A DNA stretch of 64,000 bases, taken from assembly GCA_000002435.2 (NCBI GenBank), contig CM018793.1; one strand, given 5' to 3'. How positions within the stretch are numbered: position 1 is the first letter of the stretch; each line of letters opens with the position of its first letter. Shown piece after piece: positions 1 to 27,161 of the stretch. A program made the position numbers and the translations under genes. The notes beneath the pieces are model-generated. The model was given only the letters and a program-made list of their open reading frames with translations, did not search any database and was not told where the DNA came from. This DNA comes from Giardia intestinalis. Its lineage: Eukaryota.

Positions 1-3000
1 GCCAGGGGGGCCTTCTCCCCAGCTCCAGGGGTATGCTCCTGTGCGCGGGGGCGCGCGGGTCACGGCCAGGGGGGCCAGGCGCTGCAGGCTGTGTGTTAGT
101 GGATCCGCGGAGAGGGCGGCCTGCGGTGTTAGGGCATAGCGGCATGCAGCATACAGGCCCGAGGGAGGCGTGCCATGTGGGGGGAGTGGTAGGGGGGCAT
201 CCTGGAGGATCGATGGCGAAGGTGCCGATCCTCCTCCGTGGCGGCGCAGGAGTCCTGGATGAGACGTGATGGCGTGGGTGCTTGGCCTTTGCTCGAGCGC
301 ATGGTGTGGGTGGACCGATTCCCCGCATCCTCCAGGCCCTGCGGGGGCGGTCTTCAGGCCCAAATTCTGGATTTTGGAAAAAATAAAATCCACCATGAGC
401 GTCGCCCCGGCGCAACCAGCAGGCCCTGGGCCGCGGAAACAAAGAGACAAATAGCCCGTGGACCAAGAAGAGTGCAGGCCTGTTTGGGGGGTAGAAGACG
501 ACGCGTCGGGCCAGAAACCCAGGGATCCAGGATTCCAGTCAAAGGCAGGCCTACAGACCGGCCCACTGCACCGCGCACATACGCGAGGCACCATAATGCT
601 GTTGCACTAAAAAGGGAAGCGCGAGCCCAGAGAACCGGCGAGGAAACCAGCTGGGGTGAGGGTGGGGAGCCAAATCTGGCCCATCGACACACGGGTGAGC
701 GTGGCCGCCCAAGGGACAGCGTGGACAGGTGTGCAGGCCCCATAAAGGATGCACGATGGGATCGGCCGGGGCCACCGATTCGGGGGACAAGGAGACCGTC
801 CGGACGGTCCCCGGAGTCCGGAGAAGGAGGTGCGGACCGTGCGCCATAGCTAGCCCATCCACACGTGTCGTGCTATTCCAGAATGGTGGCTCACCGGAGG
901 CGTCTGGCCAAGATGGCGGGGGCAGCGGGGCGGTGTCCCATACGCCCAGAGCCGACAGAAGGTCACGCCTGAGAGAGCAGACTGACGGCTTAGGAGGTGG
1001 TGTGGGGAGGCACGGGTGATGGAGGAGGCCCCCTAAGGGCGGGTCCAGGCTGATGACGCCAGCTCAGGACAGACCGGCAGAGCGCCGTGGAGCCATATTC
1101 TTCTGTGCGTGCCAGTCCCATCTGTGACAAGCAACCCATGTGGTGCCAGCGCTGGTGGGAGGCATGTGGCCCAGGTATGGAGCGAAACCTGGGGCCCGGC
1201 CGGACTGTCAACAGCCGTCACCGCGACTCAGCGGAGACCGAGCAGGAGAGGTAGAGAGGAGCAGGGGAGAATGGCCAGGCAAACACAGGCGCATGAGGGA
1301 TGGCCCATGGAGGGCAAGCACCTGGAGGCCAGGCCAGAGTGACCAGGTTCCCTGTACCGGGGCGCCCAGAGTGGGTACATGAGGGGGGCAGTGGGGAAGC
1401 GATGCACCCGAGGGCTCAGTAGCACATAGCACCCGGCCATCCTCTCCAGGGGCACCGGGGCGCTGCAGCAGAGGATGGCCCGAGCCAGGGCTGTGCCGCC
1501 CCGGACCGGAGGCGGCCACTGGCGGGCAGTTCCATGGGGGGATCAGCACGGCGCGGTGCGATGGTACGAATGACACACGGGGCTAGCCTCTTCCCCCAGC
1601 ACCAGCTCGCCAGACTCAGCACCCAAGGACCGCCGCTGCCCGGGAGGACAGACAGACGAACACCGGGCTGCGGCGTGGGCAGATGACGAGTCCCATCGAG
1701 GAAGTGCCCAAACGTAGGCAGGGCGGGTGTCTGGCCATCCAGGGGGGCGTCCGGCCTGGCCCGGCCTGGTCGAGTGTGTATGGCATCGCGGCTAGGCATC
1801 TATCGCACCGGTCTGGACGTGATGCACACCCGAATGATAGGGCAAGAGGCCTCGGGTGCGAGCGAGGAGTACCAGGGGAGACAGCTCGGCACGCAGGCCC
1901 AGGGGTCCGTTCGCGCTGTGGGGCAGCCGACAGCGGGCAGGGTGCCCAAGCATGACCACTAGCGCCCCGTGTCGATGCGTTTGAAGGGGTAGAAGCCATC
2001 AGGGGCATGCGGCTTGGGAGGACCGACGCGCTTGAAGAAGGACGGCAGGGCCTTGTGCACCGGCTCGGGTGCTCCTGCATCGTCGGGGCTGTCGTCATCC
2101 AGTGGAGGCGGGGAGGGGGCCCTTGAGCACATGAAGGGGTCTGGGCGTTCGTTTGCATCCGCTGTGCGGGGTGATCGGTGCCCCAGGTGATCGAGGAGGA
2201 GACCTCAGCAGGACCCCAGGGAGGAGGGACTGCCGCATCAGGATGCTGGCTGAGATCGGCCATGATCTCTACGGAGGGCGACGTGCCAGGGCTCCACATG
2301 GCAGGGGTGAGGGGAGTAGGAGGAGTAGCCCGAGCCTCGTTGGGAGCCGGTTCCGGCAGGGATACTGCAGGGGCGGGGCGGTGCACCGGCCTCTCCACTC
2401 GCAGCCCAGCGTACAGGAGGGCCGACAGCCTGTAGTGCCAGAGGATGACCTGCGCCGCCTCCTGCATGAAGCGCGCAAGGTCCACGCCGGCGAACGCGAG
2501 TCCGGCCGCAGACAGGTGGTGCAGGACGCCGTCAGCACCGACCACGACGGGGAGGATGTGGGCCGCCCGCCCCTGGAGCACGAGGGGGCGATACTTGGCG
2601 GCCTTCAGGGCATAGGACCGCTCCAGCCTCCACGGGACAGTGACCACCAAGTCCCCGAAGCCCCCACCGATGACAAGGTCAGGCTGGAGGTGATCCACTG
2701 GGATCGTGGGATTGCGCACAACAGACCCAGCGCGACCGCGGGAGCACGCGAGCAGGGCGTCCAGAATCTTGTCGTGCCGCGCCACGTGAATCCCGTTAAT
2801 GGCCTTGCACACCAGATGGTGCCTGGGAAGGAAGGGCTGCTTGCAGTGGCAGCACGTGCCCATCGGCCGGCCCCGCTGGTACCTCCCCGCCAAGCAGTCC
2901 CCTATGAACAGGACCTGCGTGTTGTCCAGGGGTGCGCAGCCCAGCAATGCGAGCGGCAGGAAGGATCGGAGCGCGGCCGTGTCCTGCAGGCGCTTCTTCC

Positions 3001-5289
3001 TCAGCTCGCGGAAGACGCCCGCCTTCATGTCCTGGCGCTGCCTGTGCATCTCGTCGTAGTAGTGATGGGGCAGCACCAGTCCGAGGCCGTACTTCGCGCG
3101 GGGCGTCAGAGCAAGGGTCTTCGCAAGGGGTTCGGGGATCTCCAGAAGGGTCGCGACCTCCTCCACTATCTGCGCATCGACGTCGGCATAGGGGGACGGG
3201 CCCGGGTAGTCGTCAACAAGGGGTCCATAGTTAACTGCAGGGACGACGCAGGCAGACAGGAGCCTGAGGCGGTCGTGGAGTGAGAGACCCGAAGCACGGA
3301 GGACGGCGAGATGCTCGTGGAGCCGGCGGGCCGATGTCTGCGCGAGGTTGAAGGAGGAGTGCTTGAGCACGCGGGTGCCCATGAAGGAGATCGCCCCGGC
3401 CTGGGTCGAGGAGCACTTCGAGAGCTCGACCGTGAGCCCTATGCGGGAGAGGGCAGACTGCGCGTCACTCTTCACGGTATCTATGGGAATCGCCTCCTCT
3501 GACGCAATGACGAGGTCGTCGGCGTATGCAACGACCTTGTACTGGCCGAGGTACGTCTCCACCGGCCAGACAAGGCTCTGGCAGAACATCGCCATGGACA
3601 GCGGGTCCCCCTGTGGCACGCCCGCTGGGACCGCGGGGAGGTCCGAGGAGTGCCGAGCCGCGAGGAACGACTCAATGTACGCGACGGTCGGCTGGACCAC
3701 CCCTGCCCGGCGGAGCGCAAAGAGGATGACGGAATGCGGGACGCTGTTGAAGGCATTCCGCACATCCACCGTGAGCAGGTGGTGTGTCCTCTTCAGCTCC
3801 TCGGCCGCGCGGATCGCCTTCATCTGGGCGAGGTGCTCAAAGGCCAGCTGCCACGCCGGGAGCTTGCGGAGCGCGGGAGTCCGACGCAGGAGCAAGCGGT
3901 GGAAGGCGACCAGAAGCGTCTCCTGCACTGCGATAGGGCGCCATCGGCCGCCAGACTTGGGCAGAAGCTTCAGCCTGAACTCGCACAGGGGCTGGAGCTG
4001 GGCCCAGTTCCTGCTGGAGAAGAGGGTCGTCAGGACAGAGGTGAAGAGCTCCGCAGCCCCGGCGGCCCCACAAAGGTGCAGGAGGTGAGGCTTCCCCAGC
4101 CCAGAGGGTCCGGCCGCGACAGGCCTCATCGCCTGCAGCTCCTTCAGCAGCGCCTTGGCCGTTATCTTGGGCGACGGGCCGAGCACGTGATGGACGGGGG
4201 GCAGAGAGACAGGCATGGGGCGCGGGTGGAGCTCATGGACAATCGCTTCCCGCTCCTTGCCCTGGGGCTCGGGGACCCTGGCGGCAGAGGACGTCTCGCT
4301 CAACAGCGCCTGCCATGCCCGGCCGAGCAGCCCCTTCCGGAGAAGCGACTGCGCCGGGGGGAGCCGTCCAGAGCCCTCCATGCGGCGGCACGTCGAGAGG
4401 AAGCGCGCTAGGGCCTCTACAGGAGGAAGGCGCCCCGCCATCTCTGTGAATACGTCAGTGAGGAGGCGAAGCAGCTCAGGGGACGGGCTGCCACTAGGCA
4501 CCCCGATGCGCTCGGGGACTGTGGCGTCGAGCGGGAGGTAGTGGCCGAGCCTGGCGATATGGGCCTTCAGCCCCCTCTCCGTTTTGTATCGGGCCCGGCA
4601 CATGCTGCATGCATACGGGAACACAGGGTCCGGCGTTGGCGAGGGAGAGGGCTCGGCGGCTGCAGGTGGAGGGGCAGACCCCGACAGCGGAGAAGGGCTG
4701 CGCGACGGAGAAGGTGAACCGGGAGGCGGATGGTGCATCCCGATGTGGACATCGATCGCCGCAGAGTCAGGCAGCACCTCTCCGCAGCGCTCGCAGACAG
4801 TCGTACGGCCCCCAGGAGCAGGCAGGTCTGCGCCCCGGGCCTCCTGCTCGTCCGTGATGGACGGGGAGTTGTCGTGGCCCAGGTCGTATGGGAGGCCGTC
4901 GTCGGGAATCGGGAGGGGCTCCTGGCCACAGGGCAGAAGGTCGTTCGACAGGCAGGGAGGAGAGGCGTCCCGGGCCACCGAGGCCCCGGAGCCCTGTAAG
5001 CCATGGACAGGAGAAGACTCATTGGGAGAGTTGTCCGTGGCGGAACGGCTGTTGCCAGGCCCAGGCTGGGGGGATGGGGGCCCGTGGGAGCCGCAGAGGG
5101 GCTCGCAAGAGGAAGGCCGGGCCATGGCGGTCGTCGAGGCATCGTTGCCGTCACCCAGCGTCATAGGATCGGGAGTGCCCCTAGGTAGGGGCCTGTGGGA
5201 GTCGGTTGGAGCGTGGTTGGGAGGCTCTGGGCCTGAGGAAGCCCCGATCTCCGTGGTTCCCGAAGGCGCGGAAAGGGCGGAACGCATGG
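1..5289 (-). mobile_element. R2-like (RLE-type) non-LTR retrotransposon copy E0; its 3' end and poly(A) lie left of the window
   Basis: Same ORF and 3' region as the other copies. The ATG complement is at 5285-5287, 2 nt from the poly(T) of E1. The 3' region at 590-780 carries several small deletions relative to E1-E3. Confidence 0.85.
1616..5287 (-). CDS. R2-type RT/endonuclease ORF of copy E0; a 1-bp deletion near the 3' end changes the last ~68 aa and extends the frame
   Basis: Identical to the E1 protein up to ...ITWGTDHPAQ. Sequence gcatccgctgtgc (about 2160) lacks one g relative to E1 gcatccggctgtgc (7640). All catalytic domains are intact. The track ORF 1616..5740 additionally reads through the poly(A) by chance. 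Confidence 0.6.
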   Translation of the reverse strand: MRSALSAPSGTTEIGASSGPEPPNHAPTDSHRPLPRGTPDPMTLGDGNDASTTAMARPSSCEPLCGSHGPPSPQPGPGNSRSATDNSPNESSPVHGLQGSGASVARDASPPCLSNDLLPCGQEPLPIPDDGLPYDLGHDNSPSITDEQEARGADLPAPGGRTTVCERCGEVLPDSAAIDVHIGMHHPPPGSPSPSRSPSPLSGSAPPPAAAEPSPSPTPDPVFPYACSMCRARYKTERGLKAHIARLGHYLPLDATVPERIGVPSGSPSPELLRLLTDVFTEMAGRLPPVEALARFLSTCRRMEGSGRLPPAQSLLRKGLLGRAWQALLSETSSAARVPEPQGKEREAIVHELHPRPMPVSLPPVHHVLGPSPKITAKALLKELQAMRPVAAGPSGLGKPHLLHLCGAAGAAELFTSVLTTLFSSRNWAQLQPLCEFRLKLLPKSGGRWRPIAVQETLLVAFHRLLLRRTPALRKLPAWQLAFEHLAQMKAIRAAEELKRTHHLLTVDVRNAFNSVPHSVILFALRRAGVVQPTVAYIESFLAARHSSDLPAVPAGVPQGDPLSMAMFCQSLVWPVETYLGQYKVVAYADDLVIASEEAIPIDTVKSDAQSALSRIGLTVELSKCSSTQAGAISFMGTRVLKHSSFNLAQTSARRLHEHLAVLRASGLSLHDRLRLLSACVVPAVNYGPLVDDYPGPSPYADVDAQIVEEVATLLEIPEPLAKTLALTPRAKYGLGLVLPHHYYDEMHRQRQDMKAGVFRELRKKRLQDTAALRSFLPLALLGCAPLDNTQVLFIGDCLAGRYQRGRPMGTCCHCKQPFLPRHHLVCKAINGIHVARHDKILDALLACSRGRAGSVVRNPTIPVDHLQPDLVIGGGFGDLVVTVPWRLERSYALKAAKYRPLVLQGRAAHILPVVVGADGVLHHLSAAGLAFAGVDLARFMQEAAQVILWHYRLSALLYAGLRVERPVHRPAPAVSLPEPAPNEARATPPTPLTPAMWSPGTSPSVEIMADLSQHPDAAVPPPWGPAEVSSSITWGTDHPAQRMQTNAQTPSCAQGPPPRLHWMTTAPTMQEHPSRCTRPCRPSSSASVLPSRMPLMASTPSNASTRGASGHAWAPCPLSAAPQRERTPGPACRAVSPGTPRSHPRPLALSFGCASRPDRCDRCLAAMPYTLDQAGPGRTPPWMARHPPCLRLGTSSMGLVICPRRSPVFVCLSSRAAAVLGC

Positions 5290-5302
5290 TTTTTTTTTTT
5301 TT
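5290..5302 (-). repeat. Poly(A) tail (13 nt) of copy E1, directly abutting the ATG of E0
   Basis: Plus strand reads catgg ttttttttttttt cagagg. Confidence 0.9.
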
Positions 5303-7431
5303 CAGAGGCGGTTTACTACGTAATATGCGCGCAAGGCGGTAAGGACATTGGAGGGGAGGCAGCCTCACGACGGAGGGGAAGGGCCCGCCCGGGGCGCCCA
5401 GCCCCCGTGCCCGCGTGGTCTCGCGGCGGGGGCGCGGCCAGGGGGGCCTTCTCCCCAGCTCCAGGGGTATGCTCCTGTGCGCGGGGGCGCGCGGGTCACG
5501 GCCAGGGGGGCCAGGCGCTGCAGGCTGTGTGTTAGTGGATCCGCGGAGAGGGCGGCCTGCGGTGTTAGGGCATAGCGGCATGCAGACATACAGGCCCGAG
5601 GGAGGCGTGCCATGTGAGGGGGAGTGGTAGGGGGGCATCCTGGAGGATCGATGGCGAAGGTGCCGATCCTCCTCCGTGGCGGCGCAGGAGTCCTGGATGA
5701 GACGTGATGGCGTGGGTGCTTGGCCTTTGCTCGAGCGCATGGTGTGGGTGGACCGATTCCCCGCATCCTCCAGGCCCTGCGGGGGCGGTCTTCAGGCCCA
5801 AATTCTGGATTTTGGAAAAAATAAAATCCACCATGAGCGTCGCCCCGGCGCAACCAGCAGGCCCTGGGCCGCGGAAACAAAGAGACAAATAGCCCGTGGA
5901 CCAAGAAGAGTGCAGGCCTGTTTGGGGGGTAGAAGACGACGCGTCGGGCCAGAAACCCAGGGATCCAGGATTCCAGTCAAAGGCAGGCCTACAGACCGGC
6001 CCACTGCACCGCGCACATACGCGAGGCACCATAATGCTGTTGCACTAAAAAGGGAAGCGCGAGCCCAGAGAACCGGCGAGGAAACAGCTTGGGGGTGGAG
6101 GGGTTTGGGGAGCCCAAATTCTGGCCCATCGACACACGGGGTGAGCTGTGGCCGGCCCAAGGGGACAGCGTGGACAGGTGTGTGCAGTGCCCCATATAAG
6201 GATGCACGATGGGGATCGGCCGGGGCCACCGATTCGGGGGACAAGGGAGACGCGTCCGGACTGTCCCCGGGAGTCCGTGAGAAGGGAGGGTGCGGACCGT
6301 GCGCCATAGCTAGCCCATCCACACGTGTCGTGCTATTCCAGAATGGTGGCTCACCGGAGGCGTCTGGCCAAGATGGCGGGGGCAGCGGGGCGGTGGTCCC
6401 ATACGGCCCAGGAGGCCGACAGAAGGTCACGCCTGAGAGAGCAGACTGACGGCTTAGGAGGTGGTGTGGGGAGGCACGGGTGATGGAGGAGGCCCCCTAA
6501 GGGCGGGTCCAGGCTGATGACGCCAGCTCAGGACAGACCGGCAGAGCGCCGTGGAGCCATATTCTTCTGTGCGTGCCAGTCCCATCTGTGACAAGCAACC
6601 CATGTGGTGCCAGCGCTGGTGGGAGGCATGTGGCCCAGGTATGGAGCGAAACCTGGGGGCCCGGCCGGGACTGTCAACAGCCGTCACCGCGACTCAGCGG
6701 AGACCGAGCAGGAGAGGTAGAGAGGAGCAGGGGAGAATGGGCCAGGCAAACACAGGCGCATGAGGGATGGCCCATTGGAGGGCAAGCACCTGGAGGCCAG
6801 GGCCAGAGTGACCAGGTTCCCTGTACCGGGGCGCCCAGAGTGGGTACATGAGGGGGGGCAGTGGGGAAGCGATGCACCCGAGGGCTCAGTAGCACATAGC
6901 ACCCGGCCATCCTCTCCAGGGGGCACCGGGGCGCTGCAGCAGAGGATGGCCCGAGCCAGGGCTGTGCCGCCCCGGACCGGAGGCGGCCACTGGCGGGCAG
7001 TTCCATGGGGGGATCAGCACGGCGCGGTGCGATGGTACGAATGACACACGGGGCTAGCCTCTTCCCCCAGCACCAGCTCGCCAGACTCAGCACCCAAGGA
7101 CCGCCGCTGCCCGGGAGGACAGACAGACGAACACCGGGCTGCGGCGTGGGCAGATGACGAGTCCCATCGAGGAAGTGCCCAAACGTAGGCAGGGCGGGTG
7201 TCTGGCCATCCAGGGGGGCGTCCGGCCTGGCCCGGCCTGGTCGAGTGTGTATGGCATCGCGGCTAGGCATCTATCGCACCGTGTCTGGACGTGATGCACA
7301 CCCGAATGATAGGGGCAAGAGGCCTCGGGTGCGAGCGAGGAGTACCAGGGGAGACAGCTCGGCACGCAGGCCCAGGGGTCCGTTCGCGCTGTGGGGCAGC
7401 CGACAGCGGGCAGGGTGCCCAAGCATGACCA
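5303..7431 (-). other. Unusually long (2129 nt) non-coding 3' region of E1. The equivalent regions in other copies are 10778-12906, 16255-18378, 21631-23734 and 1-1958 (partial)
   Basis: It lies between the ORF stop (7432-7434) and the poly(A). Only low-complexity Pro/Gly/Arg-rich ORFs occur on either strand. The region is near-identical across copies. Confidence 0.7.
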
Positions 7432-10400
7432 CTAGCGCCCCGTGTCGATGCGTTTGAAGGGGTAGAAGCCATCAGGGGCATGCGGCTTGGGAGGACCGAC
7501 GCGCTTGAAGAAGGACGGCAGGGCCTTGTGCACCGGCTCGGGTGCTCCTGCATCGTCGGGGCTGTCGTCATCCAGTGGAGGCGGGGAGGGGGCCCTTGAG
7601 CACATGAAGGGGTCTGGGCGTTCGTTTGCATCCGGCTGTGCGGGGTGATCGGTGCCCCAGGTGATCGAGGAGGAGACCTCAGCAGGACCCCAGGGAGGAG
7701 GGACTGCCGCATCAGGATGCTGGCTGAGATCGGCCATGATCTCTACGGAGGGCGACGTGCCAGGGCTCCACATGGCAGGGGTGAGGGGAGTAGGAGGAGT
7801 AGCCCGAGCCTCGTTGGGAGCCGGTTCCGGCAGGGATACTGCAGGGGCGGGGCGGTGCACCGGCCTCTCCACTCGCAGCCCAGCGTACAGGAGGGCCGAC
7901 AGCCTGTAGTGCCAGAGGATGACCTGCGCCGCCTCCTGCATGAAGCGCGCAAGGTCCACGCCGGCGAACGCGAGTCCGGCCGCAGACAGGTGGTGCAGGA
8001 CGCCGTCAGCACCGACCACGACGGGGAGGATGTGGGCCGCCCGCCCCTGGAGCACGAGGGGGCGATACTTGGCGGCCTTCAGGGCATAGGACCGCTCCAG
8101 CCTCCACGGGACAGTGACCACCAAGTCCCCGAAGCCCCCACCGATGACAAGGTCAGGCTGGAGGTGATCCACTGGGATCGTGGGATTGCGCACAACAGAC
8201 CCAGCGCGACCGCGGGAGCACGCGAGCAGGGCGTCCAGAATCTTGTCGTGCCGCGCCACGTGAATCCCGTTAATGGCCTTGCACACCAGATGGTGCCTGG
8301 GAAGGAAGGGCTGCTTGCAGTGGCAGCACGTGCCCATCGGCCGGCCCCGCTGGTACCTCCCCGCCAAGCAGTCCCCTATGAACAGGACCTGCGTGTTGTC
8401 CAGGGGTGCGCAGCCCAGCAATGCGAGCGGCAGGAAGGATCGGAGCGCGGCCGTGTCCTGCAGGCGCTTCTTCCTCAGCTCGCGGAAGACGCCCGCCTTC
8501 ATGTCCTGGCGCTGCCTGTGCATCTCGTCGTAGTAGTGATGGGGCAGCACCAGTCCGAGGCCGTACTTCGCGCGGGGCGTCAGAGCAAGGGTCTTCGCAA
8601 GGGGTTCGGGGATCTCCAGAAGGGTCGCGACCTCCTCCACTATCTGCGCATCGACGTCGGCATAGGGGGACGGGCCCGGGTAGTCGTCAACAAGGGGTCC
8701 ATAGTTAACTGCAGGGACGACGCAGGCAGACAGGAGCCTGAGGCGGTCGTGGAGTGAGAGACCCGAAGCACGGAGGACGGCGAGATGCTCGTGGAGCCGG
8801 CGGGCCGATGTCTGCGCGAGGTTGAAGGAGGAGTGCTTGAGCACGCGGGTGCCCATGAAGGAGATCGCCCCGGCCTGGGTCGAGGAGCACTTCGAGAGCT
8901 CGACCGTGAGCCCTATGCGGGAGAGGGCAGACTGCGCGTCACTCTTCACGGTATCTATGGGAATCGCCTCCTCTGACGCAATGACGAGGTCGTCGGCGTA
9001 TGCAACGACCTTGTACTGGCCGAGGTACGTCTCCACCGGCCAGACAAGGCTCTGGCAGAACATCGCCATGGACAGCGGGTCCCCCTGTGGCACGCCCGCT
9101 GGGACCGCGGGGAGGTCCGAGGAGTGCCGAGCCGCGAGGAACGACTCAATGTACGCGACGGTCGGCTGGACCACCCCTGCCCGGCGGAGCGCAAAGAGGA
9201 TGACGGAATGCGGGACGCTGTTGAAGGCATTCCGCACATCCACCGTGAGCAGGTGGTGTGTCCTCTTCAGCTCCTCGGCCGCGCGGATCGCCTTCATCTG
9301 GGCGAGGTGCTCAAAGGCCAGCTGCCACGCCGGGAGCTTGCGGAGCGCGGGAGTCCGACGCAGGAGCAAGCGGTGGAAGGCGACCAGAAGCGTCTCCTGC
9401 ACTGCGATAGGGCGCCATCGGCCGCCAGACTTGGGCAGAAGCTTCAGCCTGAACTCGCACAGGGGCTGGAGCTGGGCCCAGTTCCTGCTGGAGAAGAGGG
9501 TCGTCAGGACAGAGGTGAAGAGCTCCGCAGCCCCGGCGGCCCCACAAAGGTGCAGGAGGTGAGGCTTCCCCAGCCCAGAGGGTCCGGCCGCGACAGGCCT
9601 CATCGCCTGCAGCTCCTTCAGCAGCGCCTTGGCCGTTATCTTGGGCGACGGGCCGAGCACGTGATGGACGGGGGGCAGAGAGACAGGCATGGGGCGCGGG
9701 TGGAGCTCATGGACAATCGCTTCCCGCTCCTTGCCCTGGGGCTCGGGGACCCTGGCGGCAGAGGACGTCTCGCTCAACAGCGCCTGCCATGCCCGGCCGA
9801 GCAGCCCCTTCCGGAGAAGCGACTGCGCCGGGGGGAGCCGTCCAGAGCCCTCCATGCGGCGGCACGTCGAGAGGAAGCGCGCTAGGGCCTCTACAGGAGG
9901 AAGGCGCCCCGCCATCTCTGTGAATACGTCAGTGAGGAGGCGAAGCAGCTCAGGGGACGGGCTGCCACTAGGCACCCCGATGCGCTCGGGGACTGTGGCG
10001 TCGAGCGGGAGGTAGTGGCCGAGCCTGGCGATATGGGCCTTCAGCCCCCTCTCCGTTTTGTATCGGGCCCGGCACATGCTGCATGCATACGGGAACACAG
10101 GGTCCGGCGTTGGCGAGGGAGAGGGCTCGGCGGCTGCAGGTGGAGGGGCAGACCCCGACAGCGGAGAAGGGCTGCGCGACGGAGAAGGTGAACCGGGAGG
10201 CGGATGGTGCATCCCGATGTGGACATCGATCGCCGCAGAGTCAGGCAGCACCTCTCCGCAGCGCTCGCAGACAGTCGTACGGCCCCCAGGAGCAGGCAGG
10301 TCTGCGCCCCGGGCCTCCTGCTCGTCCGTGATGGACGGGGAGTTGTCGTGGCCCAGGTCGTATGGGAGGCCGTCGTCGGGAATCGGGAGGGGCTCCTGGC

Positions 10401-10761
10401 CACAGGGCAGAAGGTCGTTCGACAGGCAGGGAGGAGAGGCGTCCCGGGCCACCGAGGCCCCGGAGCCCTGTAAGCCATGGACAGGAGAAGACTCATTGGG
10501 AGAGTTGTCCGTGGCGGAACGGCTGTTGCCAGGCCCAGGCTGGGGGGATGGGGGCCCGTGGGAGCCGCAGAGGGGCTCGCAAGAGGAAGGCCGGGCCATG
10601 GCGGTCGTCGAGGCATCGTTGCCGTCACCCAGCGTCATAGGATCGGGAGTGCCCCTAGGTAGGGGCCTGTGGGAGTCGGTTGGAGCGTGGTTGGGAGGCT
10701 CTGGGCCTGAGGAAGCCCCGATCTCCGTGGTTCCCGAAGGCGCGGAAAGGGCGGAACGCAT
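7432..10761 (-). CDS. Intact 1109-aa R2-type ORF: 2x C2H2 zinc finger, reverse transcriptase, CCHC motif, REL-endonuclease (PD-(D/E)xK)
   Basis: Uninterrupted ORF. ZF1 is CERCGEV..HIGMHH and ZF2 is CSMC...HIARLGH. RT motifs are LLTVDVRNAFNSV, GVPQGDPLS and VVAYADDLVIAS (YADD at nt 8989-9000). CCHCKQPFLPRHHLVCK is followed by RNPTIPVDHLQPDLVIGGGFGDLVVTV...K, the hallmark of RLE-bearing non-LTR elements such as R2. Confidence 0.9.
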   Translation of the reverse strand: MRSALSAPSGTTEIGASSGPEPPNHAPTDSHRPLPRGTPDPMTLGDGNDASTTAMARPSSCEPLCGSHGPPSPQPGPGNSRSATDNSPNESSPVHGLQGSGASVARDASPPCLSNDLLPCGQEPLPIPDDGLPYDLGHDNSPSITDEQEARGADLPAPGGRTTVCERCGEVLPDSAAIDVHIGMHHPPPGSPSPSRSPSPLSGSAPPPAAAEPSPSPTPDPVFPYACSMCRARYKTERGLKAHIARLGHYLPLDATVPERIGVPSGSPSPELLRLLTDVFTEMAGRLPPVEALARFLSTCRRMEGSGRLPPAQSLLRKGLLGRAWQALLSETSSAARVPEPQGKEREAIVHELHPRPMPVSLPPVHHVLGPSPKITAKALLKELQAMRPVAAGPSGLGKPHLLHLCGAAGAAELFTSVLTTLFSSRNWAQLQPLCEFRLKLLPKSGGRWRPIAVQETLLVAFHRLLLRRTPALRKLPAWQLAFEHLAQMKAIRAAEELKRTHHLLTVDVRNAFNSVPHSVILFALRRAGVVQPTVAYIESFLAARHSSDLPAVPAGVPQGDPLSMAMFCQSLVWPVETYLGQYKVVAYADDLVIASEEAIPIDTVKSDAQSALSRIGLTVELSKCSSTQAGAISFMGTRVLKHSSFNLAQTSARRLHEHLAVLRASGLSLHDRLRLLSACVVPAVNYGPLVDDYPGPSPYADVDAQIVEEVATLLEIPEPLAKTLALTPRAKYGLGLVLPHHYYDEMHRQRQDMKAGVFRELRKKRLQDTAALRSFLPLALLGCAPLDNTQVLFIGDCLAGRYQRGRPMGTCCHCKQPFLPRHHLVCKAINGIHVARHDKILDALLACSRGRAGSVVRNPTIPVDHLQPDLVIGGGFGDLVVTVPWRLERSYALKAAKYRPLVLQGRAAHILPVVVGADGVLHHLSAAGLAFAGVDLARFMQEAAQVILWHYRLSALLYAGLRVERPVHRPAPAVSLPEPAPNEARATPPTPLTPAMWSPGTSPSVEIMADLSQHPDAAVPPPWGPAEVSSSITWGTDHPAQPDANERPDPFMCSRAPSPPPLDDDSPDDAGAPEPVHKALPSFFKRVGPPKPHAPDGFYPFKRIDTGR
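8056..8328 (-). other. CCHC motif plus restriction-enzyme-like endonuclease domain of the E1 ORF (aa 812-902)
   Basis: C812-X2-C815...H823/824...C827, followed by the PD869-870...D879...K895 catalytic-type spacing. Confidence 0.75.
8662..9579 (-). other. Reverse-transcriptase domain of the E1 ORF (about aa 395-700)
   Basis: Non-LTR RT motifs including DVRNAF, PQGDPLS and YADD. Confidence 0.85.
10015..10269 (-). other. N-terminal DNA-binding region of the E1 ORF: two C2H2 zinc fingers (aa 165-186 and 227-249)
   Basis: CX2C-X12-HX3H and CX2C-X12-HX5H spacing. R2-family proteins carry one to three N-terminal zinc fingers that bind the rDNA target. Confidence 0.7.
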
Positions 10762-10763
10762 GG

Positions 10764-10777
10764 TTTTTTTTTTTTTT
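10764..10777 (-). repeat. Poly(A) tail (14 nt) of copy E2
   Basis: Homopolymer at a unit boundary. Confidence 0.9.
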
Positions 10778-16237: not shown

Positions 16238-16254
16238 TTTTTTTTTTTTTTTTT
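16238..16254 (-). repeat. Poly(A) tail (17 nt) of copy E3
   Basis: Homopolymer at a unit boundary. Confidence 0.9.
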
Positions 16255-18378
16255 AGGGGCGGTTTACTACGTAATATGCGCGCAAGGCGGTAAGGACATT
16301 GGAGGGGAGGCAGCCTCACGACGGAGGGGAAGGGCCCGCCCGGGGCGCCCAGCCCCCGTGCCCGCGTGGTCTCGCGGCGGGGGCGCGGCCAGGGGGGCCT
16401 TCTCCCCAGCTCCAGGGGTATGCTCCTGTGCGCGGGGGCGCGCGGGTCACGGCCAGGGGGGCCAGGCGCTGCAGGCTGTGTGTTAGTGGATCCGCGGAGA
16501 GGGCGGCCTGCGGTGTTAGGGCATAGCGGCATGCAGACATACAGGCCCGAGGGAGGCGTGCCATGTGAGGGGGAGTGGTAGGGGGGCATCCTGGAGGATC
16601 GATGGCGAAGGTGCCGATCCTCCTCCGTGGCGGCGCAGGAGTCCTGGATGAGACGTGATGGCGTGGGTGCTTGGCCTTTGCTCGAGCGCATGGTGTGGGT
16701 GGACCGATTCCCCGCATCCTCCAGGCCCTGCGGGGGCGGTCTTCAGGCCCAAATTCTGGATTTTGGAAAAAATAAAATCCACCATGAGCGTCGCCCCGGC
16801 GCAACCAGCAGGCCCTGGGCCGCGGAAACAAAGAGACAAATAGCCCGTGGACCAAGAAGAGTGCAGGCCTGTTTGGGGGGTAGAAGACGACGCGTCGGGC
16901 CAGAAACCCAGGGATCCAGGATTCCAGTCAAAGGCAGGCCTACAGACCGGCCCACTGCACCGCGCACATACGCGAGGCACCATAATGCTGTTGCACTAAA
17001 AAGGGAAGCGCGAGCCCAGAGAACCGGCGAGGAAACAGCTTGGGGGTGGAGGGGTTTGGGGAGCCCAAATTCTGGCCCATCGACACACGGGGTGAGCTGT
17101 GGCCGGCCCAAGGGGACAGCGTGGACAGGTGTGTGCAGTGCCCCATATAAGGATGCACGATGGGGATCGGCCGGGGCCACCGATTCGGGGGACAAGGGAG
17201 ACGCGTCCGGACTGTCCCCGGGAGTCCGTGAGAAGGGAGGGTGCGGACCGTGCACCATAGCTAGCCCATCCACACGTGTCGTGCTATTCCAGAATGGTGG
17301 CTCACCGGAGGCGTCTGGCCAAGATGGCGGGGGCAGCGGGGCGGTGGTCCCATACGGCCCAGGAGGCCGACAGAAGGTCACGCCTGAGAGAGCAGACTGA
17401 CGGCTTAGGAGGTGGTGTGGGGAGGCACGGGTGATGGAGGAGGCCCCCTAAGGGCGGGTCCAGGCTGATGACGCCAGCTCAGGACAGACCGGCAGAGCGC
17501 CGTGGAGCCATATTCTTCTGTGCGTGCCAGTCCCATCTGTGACAAGCAACCCATGTGGTGCCAGCGCTGGTGGGAGGCATGTGGCCCAGGTATGGAGCGA
17601 AACCTGGGGGCCCGGCCGGGACTGTCAACAGCCGTCACCGCGACTCAGCGGAGACCGAGCAGGAGAGGTAGAGAGGAGCAGGGGAGAATGGGCCAGGCAA
17701 ACACAGGCGCATGAGGGATGGCCCATTGGAGGGCAAGCACCTGGAGGCCAGGGCCAGAGTGACCAGGTTCCCTGTACCGGGGCGCCCAGAGTGGGTACAT
17801 GAGGGGGGCAGTGGGGAAGCGATGCACCCGAGGGCTCAGTAGCACATAGCACCCGGCCATCCTCTCCAGGGGGCACCGGGGCGCTGCAGCAGAGGATGGC
17901 CCGAGCCAGGGCTGTGCCGCCCGGACCGGAGGCGGCCACTGGCGGGCAGTTCCATGGGGGGATCAGCACGGCGCGGTGCGATGGTACGAATGACACACGG
18001 GGCTAGCCTCTTCCCCCAGCACCAGCTCGCCAGACTCAGCACCCAAGGACCGCCGCTGCCCGGGAGGACAGACAGACGAACACCGGGCTGCGGCGTGGGC
18101 AGATGACGAGTCCATCGAGGAAGTGCCCAAACGTAGGCAGGGCGGGTGTCTGGCCATCCAGGGGGGCGTCCGGCCTGGCCCGGCCTGGTCGAGTGTGTAT
18201 GGCATCGCGGCTAGGCATCTATCGCACCGTGTCTGGACGTGATGCACACCCGAATGATAGGGGCAAGAGGCCTCGGGTGCGAGCGAGGAGTACCAGGGGA
18301 GACAGCTCGGCACGCAGGCCCAGGGGTCCGTTCGCGCTGTGGGGCAGCCGACAGCGGGCAGGGTGCCCAGCATGACCA

Positions 18379-21300
18379 CTAGCGCCCCGTGTCGATGCGT
18401 TTGAAGGGGTAGAAGCCATCAGGGGCATGCGGCTTGGGAGGACCGACGCGCTTGAAGAAGGACGGCAGGGCCTTGTGCACCGGCTCGGGTGCTCCTGCAT
18501 CGTCGGGGCTGTCGTCATCCAGTGGAGGCGGGGAGGGGGCCCTTGAGCACATGAAGGGGTCTGGGCGTTCGTTTGCATCCGGCTGTGCGGGGTGATCGGT
18601 GCCCCAGGTGATCGAGGAGGAGACCTCAGCAGGACCCCAGGGAGGAGGGACTGCCGCATCAGGATCTGGCTGAGATCGGCCATGATCTCTACGGAGGGCG
18701 ACGTGCCAGGGCTCCACATGGCAGGGGTGAGGGGAGTAGGAGGAGTAGCCCGAGCCTCGTTGGGAGCCGGTTCCGGCAGGGATACTGCAGGGGCGGGGCG
18801 GTGCACCGGCCTCTCCACTCGCAGCCCAGCGTACAGGAGGGCCGACAGCCTGTAGTGCCAGAGGATGACCTGCGCCGCCTCCTGCATGAAGCGCGCAAGG
18901 TCCACGCCGGCGAACGCGAGTCCGGCCGCAGACAGGTGGTGCAGGACGCCGTCAGCACCGACCACGACGGGGAGGATGTGGGCCGCCCGCCCCTGGAGCA
19001 CGAGGGGGCGATACTTGGCGGCCTTCAGGGCATAGGACCGCTCCAGCCTCCACGGGACAGTGACCACCAAGTCCCCGAAGCCCCCACCGATGACAAGGTC
19101 AGGCTGGAGGTGATCCACTGGGATCGTGGGATGCGCACAACAGACCCAGCGCGACCGCGGGAGCACGCGAGCAGGGCGTCCAGAATCTTGTCGTGCCGCG
19201 CCACGTGAATCCCGTTAATGGCCTTGCACACCAGATGGTGCCTGGGAAGGAAGGGCTGCTTGCAGTGGCAGCACGTGCCCATCGGCCGGCCCCGCTGGTA
19301 CCTCCCCGCCAAGCAGTCCCCTATGAACAGGACCTGCGTGTTGTCCAGGGGTGCGCGCCCAGCAATGCGAGCGGCAGGAAGGACGGAGCGCGGCCGGTGT
19401 CCTGCAGGCGCTCTTCCTCAGCTCGCGGAAGACGCCCGCCTTCATGTCCTGGCGCTGCCTGTGCATCTCGTCGAGTAGTGAGGGGCAGCACCAGTCCGAG
19501 GCCGACTTCGCGCGGGGCGTCAGAGCAAGGGTCTTCGCAAGGGGTTCGGGGATCTCCAGAAGGGTCGCGACCTCCTCCACTATCTGCGCATCGACGTCGG
19601 CATAGGGGGACGGGCCCGGGTAGTCGTCACAAGGGGTCCATAGTTAACTGCAGGGACGACGCAGGCAGACAGGAGCCTGAGGCGTCGTGGAGGAGAGAAC
19701 CCGAACACGGAGGACGGCGAGATGCTCGTGGAGCGGCGGGCCGATGTCTGCGCGAGGTTGAAGGAGGAGTGCTTGAGCACGCGGGTGCCCATGAAGGAGA
19801 TCGCCCCGGCCTGGGTCGAGGAGCACTTCGAGAGCTCGACCGTGAGCCCTATGCGGAGAGGGCAGACTGCGCGTCACTCTTCACGGTACTATGGGAATCG
19901 CCTCCTCTGACGCAATGACGAGGTCGTCGGCGTATGCAACGACCTTGTACTGGCCGAGGTACGTCTCCACCGGCCAGACCAAGGCTCTGGCAGAACATCG
20001 CCATGGACAGCGGGTCCCCCTGCACGCCCGCTGGACGCGGGGAGGTCCGAGAGTGCGAGCCGCGAGAACGACTCAAGTACGCGACGGTCGGCTGGACACC
20101 CCTGCCCGGCGGAGCGCAAAGAGGAGACGGAAGCGGGACGCTGTGAAGGCATTCCGCACATCACCGGAGCAGTGGTGGTCCTCTTCAGCTCCTCGGCCGC
20201 GCGGATCGCCTTCATCTGGCGAGGTGCTCAAGCCAGCTGCCACGCCGGGAGCTTGCGGAGCGCGGGAGTCCGACGCAGGAGCAAGCGGTGGAAGGCGACC
20301 AGAAGCGTCTCCTGCACTGCGATAGGGCGCCATCGCCGCCAGACTTGGGCAGAAGCTTCAGCCTGAACTCGCACGGGGCTGGAGCGGGCCCAGTTCCTGC
20401 TGGAGGAAGAGGGTCGTCAGACAGAGGGAAGAGCTCCGCAGCCCCGGCGCCCCACAAAGGTGCAGGAGGGAGGCTTCCCCAGCCCAGAGGGTCCGCCGCG
20501 ACAGGCCCATCGGCCTGCAGCTCCTCAGCAGCGCCTGGCCGTTATCTTGGGCGACGGGCCGAGCACGTGATGGACGGGGGCGAGAGACAGGCATGGGCGC
20601 GGGTGGAGCTCATGGACAATCGCTTCCCGCTCCTTGCCCTGGGGCTCGGGACCCTGGCGGCAGAGGACGTCTCGCTCAACAGCGCCTGCCATGCCCGGCC
20701 GAGCAGCCCCTTCCGGAGAAGCGACTGCGCCGGGGGGAGCCGTCCAGAGCCCTCCATGCGGCGGCACGTCGAGAGGAAGCGCGCTAGGGCCTCTACAGGA
20801 GGAGGCGCCCCGCCATCTCTGTGAATACGTCAGTGAGGAGGCGAAGCAGCTCAGGGGACGGCTGCCACAGGCACCCGATGCGCTCGGGGACTGTGGCGTC
20901 GAGCGGGAGGTAGTGGCCGAGCCTGGCGATATGGGCCTTCAGCCCCCTCTCCGTTTGTATCGGGCCCGGCACATGCTGCATGCATACGGGAACACAGGGT
21001 CCGGCGTTGGCGAGGGAGAGGGCTCGGCGGCTGCAGGTGGAGGGCAGACCCCGACAGCGGAGAAGGGCTGCGCGACGGAGAAGGTGAACCGGGAGGCGGA
21101 TGTGCATCCCGATGTGGACATCGATCGCCGCAGAGTCAGGCAGCACCTCTCCGCAGCGCTCGCAGACAGTCGTACGGCCCCAGGAGCAGGCAGGTCTGCG
21201 CCCCCCTCCGCTCGTGTCGGGCCCAGGTCGTATGGGAGGCCGTCGTCGGCGGGAGGGCTCCTGGCCACAGGCCGACAGGCAGGGAGGAGAGGCGTCCCGG

Positions 21301-21613
21301 GCCACCGAGGCCCCGGAGCCCTGTAAGCCATGGACAGGAGAAGACTCATTGGGAGAGTTGTCCGTGGCGGAACGGCTGTTGCCAGGCCCAGGCTGGGGGA
21401 TGGGGGCCCGTGGGAGCCGCAGAGGGGCTCGCAAGAGGAAGGCCGGGCCATGGCGGTCGTCGAGGCATCGTTGCCGTCACCCAGCGTCATAGGATCGGGA
21501 GTGCCCCTAGGTAGGGGCCTGTGGGAGTCGGTTGGAGCGTGGTTGGGAGGCTCTGGGCCTGAGGAAGCCCCGATCTCCGTGGTTCCCGAAGGCGCGGAAA
21601 GGGCGGAACGCAT
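18379..21613 (-). pseudogene. Degenerate R2-type ORF of copy E3 (many frameshifts)
   Basis: Only fragments remain in the ORF track (18379..18717, 18219..19166, 19025..19312, 19215..19580, 20793..21434, 20939..21613). They carry recognisable pieces of the E1 protein, interrupted by numerous 1-bp deletions. Confidence 0.8.
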
Positions 21614-21615
21614 GG

Positions 21616-21630
21616 TTTTTTTTTTTTTTT
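21616..21630 (-). repeat. Poly(A) tail (15 nt) of copy E4
   Basis: Homopolymer at a unit boundary. Confidence 0.9.
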
Positions 21631-23734: not shown

Positions 23735-24838
23735 CTAGCGCCCCGTGTCGATGCGTTTGAAGGGGTAGAAGCCATCAGGGGCATGCGGCTTGGGAGGACC
23801 GACGCGCTTGAAGAAGGACGGCAGGGCCTTGTGCACCGGCTCGGGTGCTCCTGCATCGTCGGGGCTGTCGTCATCCAGTGGAGGCGGGAGGGGGCCCTTG
23901 AGCACATGAAGGGGTCTGGGCGTTCGTTTGCATCCGGCTGTGCGGGGTGATCGGTGCCCCAGGTGATCGAGGAGGAGACCTCAGCAGGACCCCAGGGAGG
24001 AGGACTGCCGCATCAGGATGCTGGCTGAGATCGGCCATGATCTCTACGGAGGGCGACGTGCCAGGGCTCCACATGGCAGGGGTGAGGGGAGTAGGAGGAG
24101 TAGCCCGAGCCTCGTTGGGAGCCGGTTCCGGCAGGGATACTGCAGGGGCGGGGCGGTGCACCGGCCTCTCCACTCGCAGCCCAGCGTACAGGAGGGCCGA
24201 CAGCCTGTAGTGCCAGAGGATGACCTGCGCCGCCTCCTGCATGAAGCGCGCAAGGTCCACGCCGGCGAACGCGAGTCCGGCCGCAGACAGGTGGTGCAGG
24301 ACGCCGTCAGCACCGACCACGACGGGGAGGATGTGGGCCGCCCGCCCCTGGAGCACGAGGGGGCGATACTTGGCGGCCTTCAGGGCATAGGACCGCTCCA
24401 GCCTCCACGGGACAGTGACCACCAAGTCCCCGAAGCCCCCACCGATGACAAGGTCAGGCTGGAGGTGATCCACTGGGATCGTGGGATTGCGCACAACAGA
24501 CCCAGCGCGACCGCGGGAGCACGCGAGCAGGGCGTCCAGAATCTTGTCGTGCCGCGCCACGTGAATCCCGTTAATGGCCTTGCACACCAGATGGTGCCTG
24601 GGAAGGAAGGGCTGCTTGCAGTGGCAGCACGTGCCCATCGGCCGGCCCCGCTGGTACCTCCCCGCCAAGCAGTCCCCTATGAACAGGACCTGCGTGTCCA
24701 GGGGTGCGCCCCAGCAATGCGAGCGGCAGGAAGGATCGGAGCGCGGCCGTGTCCTGCAGGCGCTTCTTCCTCAGCTCGCGGAAGACGCCCGCCTTCATGT
24801 CCTGGCGCTGCCTGTGCATCTCGTCGTAGTAGTGATGG
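23735..24838 (-). pseudogene. 5'-truncated, frameshifted R2-type ORF remnant of copy E4 (C-terminal ~365 aa; CCHC and RLE region present)
   Basis: Track ORF 23871..24668 contains CCHCKQPFLPRHH...PDLVIGGGFGDLVVTV. Small indels are present. Homology stops at 24838. Confidence 0.8.
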
Positions 24839-25004
24839 CTGCGCCGGCCGCCCCGCCCCACAGGCCCGGGCTGGAGTCAAGCTCAAAAGGGTCTTCTTGC
24901 CCCGCTGGCCGGCCCTCGCCGTTCCCGAGGCTGGAGGCTCGCGGAGGCGCGGCTCGGGACAGTGGGATCCTCGTTGGTCCATTCATGCACGTCGGAAATT
25001 GCCC

Positions 25005-25041
<37 letters not shown>

Positions 25042-26940: not shown

Positions 26941-27161
26941 GAGGGATCCATCCGCAGGTTCACCTACGGATACCTTGTTACGACTTCTCCTTCCTCCAGG
27001 CGCGGGGGCTCGCGGCCCTTCGCGCGTCCGGGGCGCTCGCCGCCGCGCCCATCGGTAGGAGCGACGGGCGGTGTGTACAAGGGGCAGGGACGCGTCCGGC
27101 GCGCGGTGGGGGCGGGCGCCTACAAGACATTCCTGGTGCGCGGGGCGTTCCAGCCCGCGGT
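26941..27161 (-). rRNA. 18S (SSU) rRNA-like 3' end, a degenerate pseudogene copy that continues into the assembly gap
   Basis: Reverse complement GGAATGTC...CCCTGCCCCTTGTACACACCGCCCGTCGCTCCTACCGATGGG...GAAGTCGTAACAAGGTATCCGTAGGTGAACCTGCGGATGGATCCCTC matches the universal SSU 3' domain (GTACACACCGCCCGTCGC; GTCGTAACAAGGTTTCCGTAGGTGAACCTGCGGAAGGATCATTA). The near-universal 3' terminus GATCATTA is mutated to GATCCCTC. Confidence 0.85.

Follow-up and report, generated by a model that had tools for sequence, protein, structure and literature searches.

The window analysed here, a stretch of 64,000 nucleotides from contig CM018793.1 of Giardia intestinalis (GCA_000002435.2), carries a head-to-tail array of retrotransposon copies in the same orientation, with SSU and LSU rRNA genes directly upstream of it on the same strand. 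The copy examined most closely and its surroundings comprise the following features:

5290-10763, minus strand: complete GilM unit of 5,474 bp (CC-ATG, ORF, 3′ UTR, oligo(A)), bounded by oligo(A) junctions and equal in length to the published unit (PMC7000408)
7432-10761, minus strand: ORF of 1,109 aa, with C2H2 zinc finger, reverse transcriptase (RT), CCHC and REL-type endonuclease
7434-7432, minus strand: TAG stop codon, read directly
5303-7431, minus strand: non-coding 3′ UTR of 2,129 nt, read directly and from coding tests
5519-7431, minus strand: fast-evolving part of the 3′ UTR, ~1.9 kb, with undetectable similarity between families save weak ~60% matches in the last ~560 nt
5798-5838, minus strand: T-rich island GGATTTTATTTTTTCCAAAATCC, ~520 nt upstream of the poly(A), one of four AT-rich islands and a candidate internal promoter, possibly antisense
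5303-5518, minus strand: conserved 3′-terminal domain of ~216 nt, a candidate structured RNA that holds the poly(A) signal and an AT-rich promoter-like block
5429-5512, minus strand: direct repeat D1, the motif GGCCCCCCTGGCCG present twice (5429-5448 and 5493-5512) at a spacing of 64 nt
5363-5433, minus strand: predicted structural core, with an outer stem round two hairpins (~5383-5433) and an invariant CCTC/GAGG hairpin (~5363-5376), with approximate coordinates mapped by hand from alignment columns (helices 2-5)
5311-5326, minus strand: AT-rich block ATATTACGTAGTAAAC, which includes AGTAAAC and is a candidate for a TATA-like promoter element
5317-5311, minus strand: AGTAAAC, ~8 nt before the tail, fitting the Giardia poly(A) signal, whose consensus is AGTRAAY
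5290-5302, minus strand: oligo(A) tail, A13, which doubles as an AT-rich, initiator-like tract ending 2 nt short of the next ATG
5285-5289, minus strand: CC (5289-5288) and ATG (5287-5285), forming the 5′ end of the next copy with its start codon
26941-27161: SSU rRNA fragment, followed by an N run (assembly gap)

As the earlier note had stated, 2,129 nt separate the stop codon from the poly(A), and the segment lies directly upstream of the ATG of the next copy. CC-ATG comes straight after the oligo(A), so the next copy is essentially without a 5′ UTR. Units were delimited by the four oligo(A) junctions of the array (5290-5302, 10764-10777, 16238-16254 and 21616-21630), because Tandem Repeats Finder, limited to a longest period of 500, found nothing. 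The units measure 5,474, 5,474 and 5,378 bp, and the distance from stop codon to poly(A) in the four copies is 2,129, 2,129, 2,124 and 2,104 nt, with tails of A13-A17. The claim that this length is conserved across copies carries little weight inside the window, because the copies are near-identical: the 3′ regions of the second and third units (u2 and u3) are the same, and the remaining differences are mainly 1-nt homopolymer deletions, a PacBio error type reported for the WB assembly (PMC7000408). These differences were taken from pairwise alignments, a MAFFT alignment of several units, the rDNA-containing one among them, being messy. A cluster of differences in u4 (unit positions 4350-4680) was considered as an internal element boundary and rejected as homopolymer-deletion noise. 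An ORF of 1,374 aa at 1616-5740 is likewise an artefact, produced by in-frame read-through of the A13 tract together with a 1-nt deletion near the C-terminus. The 5′-truncated copy at 24838 retains the entire 3′ UTR, and the relative L003 contains a truncated copy that consists of the UTR only, with A6 and A7 on its flanks. This indicates that the 3′ UTR belongs to the retrotransposed unit.

The region 5303-7431 is the authentic 3′ UTR of GilM, a REL-endonuclease non-LTR retrotransposon of the Genie-1 type in Giardia intestinalis. The 1,109-aa protein matches an entry named ‘Reverse transcriptase/endonuclease [Giardia duodenalis]’ (P0001) with 100% identity and 100% query coverage, and the Genie-1 primers, whose sequences were taken from PMC1950533, match exactly at 9486-9505 (minus strand) and 9186-9203 (plus strand), with 0 mismatches in three copies. 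About four assembled GilM copies of 5,474 bp each have been described at the 5′ end of WB chromosome 5, at a gap bordered by a partial 18S (PMC7000408), and the window agrees with this account in its 5,474-bp units, its four oligo(A) junctions, its SSU fragment and the N run that follows. According to a review, the 3′ UTRs of GilM and GilT are unusually long, and the elements form same-orientation head-to-tail arrays with 5′-truncated members (PMC5537684); the array in the window shows all of these. The window element and GilM/GilT (Genie 1) are the same element and show no essential difference: the protein, the 5,474-bp unit and the oligo(A)-joined head-to-tail array by rDNA at a chromosome end all agree. 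GilM and GilT are expected between the subtelomere and (TAGGG)n telomere repeats; no TAGGG repeats were found in the 64-kb window, where the sequence ends by passing from rDNA into the assembly gap. The length of the GilM 3′ UTR has reportedly been remarked on since 2001, the primary accounts of Giardia GilM/GilT (Genie 1) are said to be Arkhipova & Morrison 2001 and Burke et al. 2002, and Ullu et al. 2005 reportedly refers to the family as ‘GilT/Genie 1’. The names are in conflict at one point, in that the 5,474-bp unit was given the name GilM by Xu et al., yet the primers that match it exactly are named Genie-1. The earlier note had not recognised the element as GilM.

The element is a single-ORF member of the REL-endonuclease (R2-like) group. 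Its ORF matches Pfam RVT_1 (E = 3.8e-21) and, weakly, zf-C2H2 (22.4 bits vs a curated cut-off of 27); CCHC and PD...D...K motifs were read by eye in the alignment, and its relatives in the PDB are R2 proteins only (E = 6e-9). The R2-like single ORF proposed by the earlier note is therefore upheld as to the group, while the element is not R2 proper, the 28S site being intact. As in GilM, the one ORF of the animal R2 elements encodes an N-terminal zinc finger, an RT, a CCHC motif and a PD-(D/E)-K endonuclease; the association with rDNA is common to both, and in both the RT presumably recognises the 3′ UTR of its own element. However, R2 inserts at the 28S site and GilM does not. At 25002-25023 (minus strand) the 28S motif targeted by R2 is uninterrupted, and the sole rDNA junction (24838) is that of a 5′-truncated copy ~165 nt downstream of the R2 site, the other copies abutting the oligo(A) of another copy. 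Unlike R2, GilM has a poly(A) signal and tail, lacks a 5′ UTR and forms self-adjacent tandem arrays. The R2 3′ UTR measures a few hundred nucleotides whereas that of GilM measures 2.1 kb, so the tail is indeed very long for the R2-like group, as had been claimed. A ribozyme or the R2 3′ UTR RNA family, also suggested earlier, did not appear: an Rfam search of 5200-7500 gave no match at E <= 1 to that family, to HDV-like 5′ or other ribozymes or to any other family, and a search of the whole window at the gathering score returned rRNA matches only.

The informative comparison set was drawn from metagenomes, SRA runs and Giardia assemblages other than that of the window, and consisted of diverged relatives whose 3′ regions measure 1.7-2.8 kb. 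Relatives from P15 and from metagenomes share the unit structure, their contig ends being uninformative on rDNA flanks, and about ten diverged lineages with the same architecture are known solely from metagenome/SRA contigs. The L007 contig, whose ends overlap by 101 nt, represents a circularly permuted tandem unit of 5,087 bp, so that its UTR measures 1,704 nt; a UTR length of 575 nt for it was rejected on account of this permutation. JGI metagenome contigs were scanned for the conserved motif GGCCCCCCTGGCCGNGCCNCCGCCGC, with 0 matches.

Set against these relatives, the tail divides into two parts. When the unit was compared by blastn with seven relatives, alignment was confined to the ORF core and the last ~230-250 nt, and an all-against-all comparison gave only weak UTR matches to the window, from L005 (60% over 732 nt) and L004 (60% over 361 nt). 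The terminal ~216 nt are 76-85% identical across families vs 67-74% for the ORF core. As far as these sequence comparisons reach, the ~1.9-kb upstream part is without sequence constraint between families. To call these 1.9 kb ‘long but unconstrained’ is a description, not a mechanism. Strict G-quadruplex motifs (four runs, G3+N1-7) occur once per strand in the UTR, a count that does not reproduce the 27-30 PQS reported under other criteria (PMC10088271). On the one hand, the RNAalifold consensus of the terminal domain has 91.5% of cells paired, and eight pairs are changed on both sides vs 1.9 in shuffles, a covariation drawn from 10 sequences with a handful of independent changes and from a structure derived from the same alignment. 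For example, the inner hairpin CCGCG/CGCGG has CCGCA/TGCGG as its counterpart in L007 and CCACA/TGTGG in L010; L010 also carries the same C-to-T change in both D1 copies, giving GGCCCTCCTGGCC. On the other hand, when one sequence of the domain was folded by itself, its stability did not exceed that of shuffles (z = 0.2), so thermodynamic stability is no evidence for structure in it. The earlier suggestion that the tail could hold a structured RNA recognised by the RT would fit this ~216-nt domain with its compensatory pair changes. In the secondary literature on GilM/GilT, the two-part split, the covariation, the T-rich motif at −520 and the architecture of the ~ten lineages were not found.

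The junction between copies is similarly conserved. The series AGTAAAY, 6-10 nt, oligo(A) and CC(C)ATG is present in 10 of the 11 junctions of relatives, L009 having CCCACG; an (A/T)GTAAAT equivalent precedes the oligo(A) by 6-10 nt in all relatives, and their frames open from the junction ATG. Giardia core promoters have an AT-rich initiator at the start site, 5′ UTRs of ~3-25 nt and an AT-rich element ~30 bp upstream (PMC1885649). By this comparison, the junction appears to resemble a Giardia poly(A) signal followed by an AT-rich core promoter for the downstream copy, and the role of leader or promoter that the earlier note had proposed for the segment is consistent with the conserved AT-rich block, the oligo(A), the CC and the ATG. 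AT-rich islands (>= 65% A+T in 20 nt) number only four per unit and all lie in the last 760 nt. One of them is the T-rich island, to which a related motif, CAGCTTTTTATTTTTC, corresponds, lying 523 nt upstream of the poly(A) in L001 and 517 nt upstream of it in L010; the motif is also present in L003, L004, L005 and L011. This T-rich motif could be an antisense promoter, and as such a dsRNA source of the reported GilT/Genie-1 small RNAs.

The 2.1-kb tail is non-coding, as is demonstrable from several directions, and the reading that it contains a second gene of a bicistronic element, or a C-terminal extension of the RT, is already largely refuted and hardly credible. In its favour, long open frames occur on both strands (up to 272 aa), the RT frame continues into the 3′ region in copy u4 and in the relative P0023, and gene callers place ORFs in the 3′ regions of relatives. 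However, the longest frame compares with 223 ± 55 aa in shuffles, as expected at 66% G+C; the period-3 signal-to-noise is 1.2 vs 35 in the ORF, and no Pfam family matches. The u4 extension is due to a 1-nt deletion, and the P0023 tail is P/A/R-rich low-complexity read-through, similar to nothing. In three independent diverged pairs, the indels of the ORF are all multiples of 3 and its third positions show an excess (p 1e-9 to 1e-33), whereas in the UTR 3/21, 0/17 and 1/14 indels are multiples of 3 and the substitutions lack codon periodicity (p = 0.35-0.9). The view that only spurious ORFs occur here has thus been borne out, and a conserved second ORF, which the earlier note had itself named as the finding that would contradict it, was sought by Pfam, by period-3 and by indel/substitution tests in three pairs and was not found.

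Three further readings keep the region non-coding and give it another origin or use. The lack of similarity between the 1.9 kb and the UTRs of other families looks as if each family had acquired a different sequence, which would suit a captured host sequence, as the earlier note had considered, or a separate non-autonomous element lying between copies. Yet no sign of host origin emerged from internal boundaries, related-pair alignments or composition: the stop codon and the region are not separated by any oligo(A), poly(A) signal or repeat boundary; the pairs L004/L005, L002/L006 and L003a/L007 align over the full length of the UTR (58-87% identity), which points to ordinary fast divergence; and the composition equals that of the ORF, with the same C-rich sense strand. 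We consider capture most improbable. Co-transcription of the array with the upstream rRNA genes in the manner of R2, with a self-cleaving or processing element in the long region freeing the units, would accord with the position directly downstream of the SSU and LSU rRNA genes on the same strand and with the R2-like REL-endonuclease group of the element. It is very improbable in view of the Rfam searches above, of an rDNA junction that is an incidental 5′-truncated copy ~165 nt beyond an intact R2 site, and of a unit structure that is the same in the P15 and metagenome relatives, uninformative as their contig ends are on rDNA flanks. Unlikely, although with more in its favour, is a composite in which the proximal ~1.35 kb is the UTR of the element and the last ~0.77-0.8 kb (conserved domain and A tract) is a chromosomal tandem repeat serving as a site-specific target; the target repeat would be the ‘771-bp repeat’ that Burke et al. 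2002 reportedly describe. Cross-family alignability is confined to the distal part, up to ~780 nt from the poly(A) (the L005 match), the terminal domain is more conserved than the ORF, as a host target might be, and the AT-rich islands all fall within the last ~760 nt. Against it, the poly(A) signal followed 6-10 nt on by an oligo(A) of variable length ends the unit in every lineage, the footprint of a polyadenylated RNA template; neither an A tract nor an AGTAAA signal lies near the supposed internal boundary, and the apparent boundary in u4 is the noise described above. Moreover, solo copies of the distal part are absent from all loci compared, and in the WB genome paper a GilM copy comprises all 5,474 bp (PMC7000408). 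The whole is best explained, with high probability in our judgement, by a genuine non-coding GilM 3′ UTR, in an array beside truncated rDNA, with a two-part tail and, as proposed below, promotion in tandem.

For the GilM 3′ UTR so understood, a division of labour may be proposed. The upstream ~1.9 kb would be carried along with the unit, because the whole unit would be transcribed and then reverse-transcribed from the poly(A) end, and the AT-rich patches of its distal third are probably cryptic promoters of the Giardia type. The last ~216 nt may fold into an RNA recognised by the element's own RT, starting target-primed reverse transcription, as suggested by the conservation of the terminal domain and a few compensatory changes. 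They would also supply the poly(A) signal AGTAAAC ~8 nt before the tail and, together with the templated oligo(A), may form a bipartite AT-rich core promoter that ends 2 nt before the next ATG. Each copy would then promote its downstream neighbour, as judged from sequence features and by analogy with HeT-A in Drosophila, and the absence of any 5′ UTR would make such promotion by a neighbouring copy necessary. The joint proposal, that the last ~216 nt are an LTR-like module combining RT handle and promoter in all Gil/Genie-1 lineages and that the T-rich motif is an antisense promoter, is tentative, and we regard it as possible rather than probable.

HeT-A, TART and TAHRE of Drosophila resemble GilM in their head-to-tail arrays at chromosome ends, long 3′ UTRs and strand composition bias. 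In HeT-A, promotion of the next copy by the 3′ end of the preceding one has been demonstrated, whereas for GilM we infer the same role. The three Drosophila elements belong to the unrelated Jockey clade, whose members have a gag ORF and whose endonuclease, where there is one, is of the APE type, whereas GilM has a single ORF and R2-like relatives; the presence of telomerase repeats in Giardia is a further difference from the Drosophila setting.

GilM and its long 3′ UTR having already been published, the observation was already known and little here is new. The modest addition is a clearer anatomy of the tail, which is non-coding and nearly unconstrained save for a terminal module of ~216 nt, and the added detail that the junction resembles a self-perpetuating cassette of promoter, poly(A) site and RT handle. 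If the proposal is true, an element could be expressed only when it lands behind another copy, which would account for the tandem arrays as well as for the lack of a 5′ UTR. If confirmed, this would be a second, independent case, after Drosophila HeT-A, of telomere-associated retrotransposons promoting in tandem, and would provide a mechanistic reason for the confinement of these Giardia elements to head-to-tail arrays.

Sequence is present only at positions 1-27161 of the window (G+C 65-69%), the remainder (27162-64000) being an N run, and every large ORF is on the minus strand. Plus-strand T runs, equivalent to sense oligo(A), at 5290-5302, 10764-10777, 16238-16254 and 21616-21630 delimit head-to-tail GilM units of 5,474, 5,474 and 5,378 bp; the start of the window falls inside one more copy, and another, 5'-truncated, adjoins rDNA.

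Features of the window
10761-7432, minus strand: ORF of 1,109 aa, stop codon TAG
5303-7431, minus strand: 3' region of 2,129 nt, followed by A13, CC and the ATG of the next copy
5303-5518, minus strand: conserved block (blastn, all-against-all UTR comparison, conservation profile)
5429-5448 and 5493-5512, minus strand: two copies, 64 nt apart, of the 13-14-nt motif GGCCCCCCTGGCCG, a repeat in the conserved block
5798-5838: T-rich motif, GGATTTTATTTTTTCC here and CAGCTTTTTATTTTTC elsewhere, recurring in several diverged lineages
26941-27161, minus strand: 3' end of SSU rRNA (Rfam)
From 26697 down to the junction at 24838, minus strand: LSU rRNA (Rfam)

The minus-strand read from TAG to the next ATG confirmed exactly the coordinates 5303-7431, which the earlier note had described as an unusually long non-coding 3' region. 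The distance from stop codon to poly(A) in four copies was 2,129, 2,129, 2,124 and 2,104 nt, and the tails comprised 13-17 A. The agreement in length to which the note had pointed carries little weight because the copies are almost identical and differ mostly by single-base homopolymer deletions, an error type reported for this PacBio assembly (PMC7000408). An intact 1,109-aa ORF was found only in the copy at 5290-10763. Single-nucleotide deletions occur in copy u2 at unit position 217 (window ~16021) and in copy u4 at unit position 3129 (window ~2161), the ORF of u1 (16238-21615) shows 52 gaps and 50 mismatches with dense homopolymer-deletion noise, and the u4 UTR has a noisy patch at ~610-940; these defects probably reflect an unpolished PacBio consensus, not biology. 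A 1,374-aa ORF at 1616-5740 (minus strand) was rejected as an artefact, in which the A13 tract keeps the frame open into the UTR of the previous copy and the C-terminus, owing to a 1-nt deletion, runs on for 114 codons into its own UTR.

The 1,109-aa ORF encodes a reverse-transcriptase domain and a weak C2H2 finger; the protein alignment also shows a CCHC motif and the PD...D...K motif of an endonuclease. A Giardia duodenalis 'reverse transcriptase/endonuclease' matches the ORF product at 100% identity, and among solved structures only R2 proteins are related to it. The Genie-1 primers (Chen et al. 2007, PMC1950533) match exactly in three copies. Therefore, from the ORF features, the primer matches and the published description, the long 3' UTR is real and already known. 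The protein architecture justifies the term 'R2-like', yet this is not an R2 element: the 28S target motif of R2 is intact (25002-25023), LSU sequence meets, at the sole rDNA junction (24838), a GilM copy whose truncation point is unit position 2222, and neither an R2 3' UTR element nor an HDV-like ribozyme was detected with Rfam, which leaves the suggested processing element or ribozyme unsupported. The SSU-LSU spacing is only ~243 nt, and the layout of array, rDNA and N run agrees with what PMC7000408 describes for the gap at the 5' end of chromosome 5 in the WB assembly.

The 2.1-kb region is non-coding. Its period-3 signal-to-noise is 1.2 versus 35 for the ORF, no open frame on either strand exceeds 272 aa, a length within the range of shuffles (223 +/- 55), and none of the seven UTR ORFs of >= 100 aa has a Pfam match, so the ORFs there are spurious, as had been proposed. 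Eleven loci of relatives, with encoded proteins 52-73% identical to the window ORF, were fetched from Giardia P15, another G. duodenalis assembly, ENA metagenomes and Logan SRA assemblies. Within the three pairs whose UTRs are still alignable, every ORF indel has a length divisible by three and mismatches concentrate at a single position of the codon (p = 1e-9 to 1e-33), versus multiple-of-three indels of 3/21, 0/17 and 1/14 and no codon periodicity of mismatches (p = 0.35-0.9) in the UTRs; a second ORF is accordingly unsupported. Read-through ORFs, including 1616-5740, were attributed to G+C-rich sequence or 1-nt deletions. Another example is found at locus L003 (AHHH01000009, 1395-7249), where the RT frame (protein P0023) stays open through all of the 3' region, giving a P/A/R-rich tail; this element ends in AGTAAAT and A6.

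On current evidence, the region is part of the element, and acquired sequence within it finds no support. A long 3' region is present in every relative (2,315 nt in L001, 2,770 nt in L002, 2,127 nt in L010, 1,704 nt in L007 and about 2.5-2.8 kb in L004-L006), and the 5'-truncated copy beside rDNA retains the whole UTR. At L003, one copy is reduced to almost only the UTR with A6 and A7 on its flanks, the pattern expected from reverse transcription starting at the poly(A) end; after this 2,425-nt copy comes an element whose first bases are CCCATG. The L003 array has a VSP gene and a RING-finger gene in its neighbourhood and is therefore not purely terminal. At least eight more Gil-like lineages (L004-L011; protein identity 52-63%, G+C 65-73%), alike in unit architecture, occur in ENA (ERZ27317019, ERZ27318445, ERZ28628728, ERZ28584860) and Logan assemblies (SRR21529641, SRR30543745, SRR27608068, SRR1957168), with circular permutations of the tandem unit in L007 (5,087 bp) and L010 (5,506 bp).

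Between the unit and its relatives, blastn aligned two stretches with nothing between them, the ORF core (67-74% identity) and the final ~230-250 nt of the UTR (76-85%); the all-against-all UTR comparison and the conservation profile concur. The AT-rich block ATATTACGTAGTAAAC in this conserved block includes AGTAAAC, a match to the Giardia poly(A) signal AGTRAAY. Both GGCCCCCCTGGCCG copies in L010 (~1930-2030) are altered alike to GGCCCTCCTGGCC, a concerted change that points either to a protein-binding site present twice or to conversion between copies. Across ten sequences, with few independent events and the structure taken from the same alignment, 91.5% of cells in predicted helices are paired versus 41-58% with partners slid 1-3 columns, and two-sided changes occur at eight predicted pairs versus 1.9 in shuffles (for example, CCGCG/CGCGG to CCGCA/TGCGG and CCACA/TGTGG). 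The single-sequence fold of the block is not unusually stable (z = 0.2), and the covariation evidence is modest. The block and its helices are compatible in sequence with an RNA recognised by the RT.

Burke et al. reportedly described a repeat of 771 bp. If this repeat made up the last ~0.8 kb, only ~1.35 kb of UTR would belong to the element itself and the conserved module would form part of the target DNA, a reading that fits the confinement of cross-family alignability, and of all AT-rich islands, to roughly the last 760-780 nt. It is nevertheless quite improbable: in every lineage the unit finishes with a poly(A) signal and an oligo(A) of variable length, an internal boundary signal is absent, the apparent boundary in u4 is sequencing noise, and a single copy in the genome paper spans 5,474 bp (PMC7000408).

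The 3' end of the unit may also act on the next copy. Of the 11 junctions in relatives, 10 read (A/T)GTAAAT, 6-10 nt, oligo(A) and then CC(C)ATG, from whose ATG the frame of the next unit is open (L009 has CCCACG); since oligo(A) directly precedes CC(C)ATG, the element is essentially without a 5' UTR. The core promoter of Giardia genes has two AT-rich elements (PMC1885649): one, the initiator, marks the start site and gives 5' UTRs of about 3-25 nt, and the other lies about 30 bp upstream. Oligo(A) and ATATTACGTAGTAAAC are arranged similarly relative to the downstream ATG. Islands of >= 65% A+T in the 5.5-kb unit occur only within its last 760 nt. The T-rich motif, 517-524 nt upstream of poly(A) in three full-length units and present in relatives (L001 5452-5480, L010 1613-1634, L003 ~6918, L004 6039-6103, L005 5803-5848, L011 ~5165), could be an internal or antisense promoter. 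Several relatives carry a AATTTACAGGGCTTCAAAAAAT-like AT-rich patch about 300 nt into the ORF (L001 459-481, L002 283-313, L006 331-367, L007 2016-2036, L010 2450-2455); the GilM ORF of the window has no AT-rich island.

The observation of a long non-coding 3' UTR, a known feature of GilM, is thus confirmed, and the interpretation placed on it is partly supported. The proposed promoter or leader role is compatible with the AT-rich block, oligo(A) and CC-ATG, from which we infer that the 3' end of each GilM copy would promote its downstream neighbour in the manner demonstrated by experiment for HeT-A (reviewed in PMC5537684).
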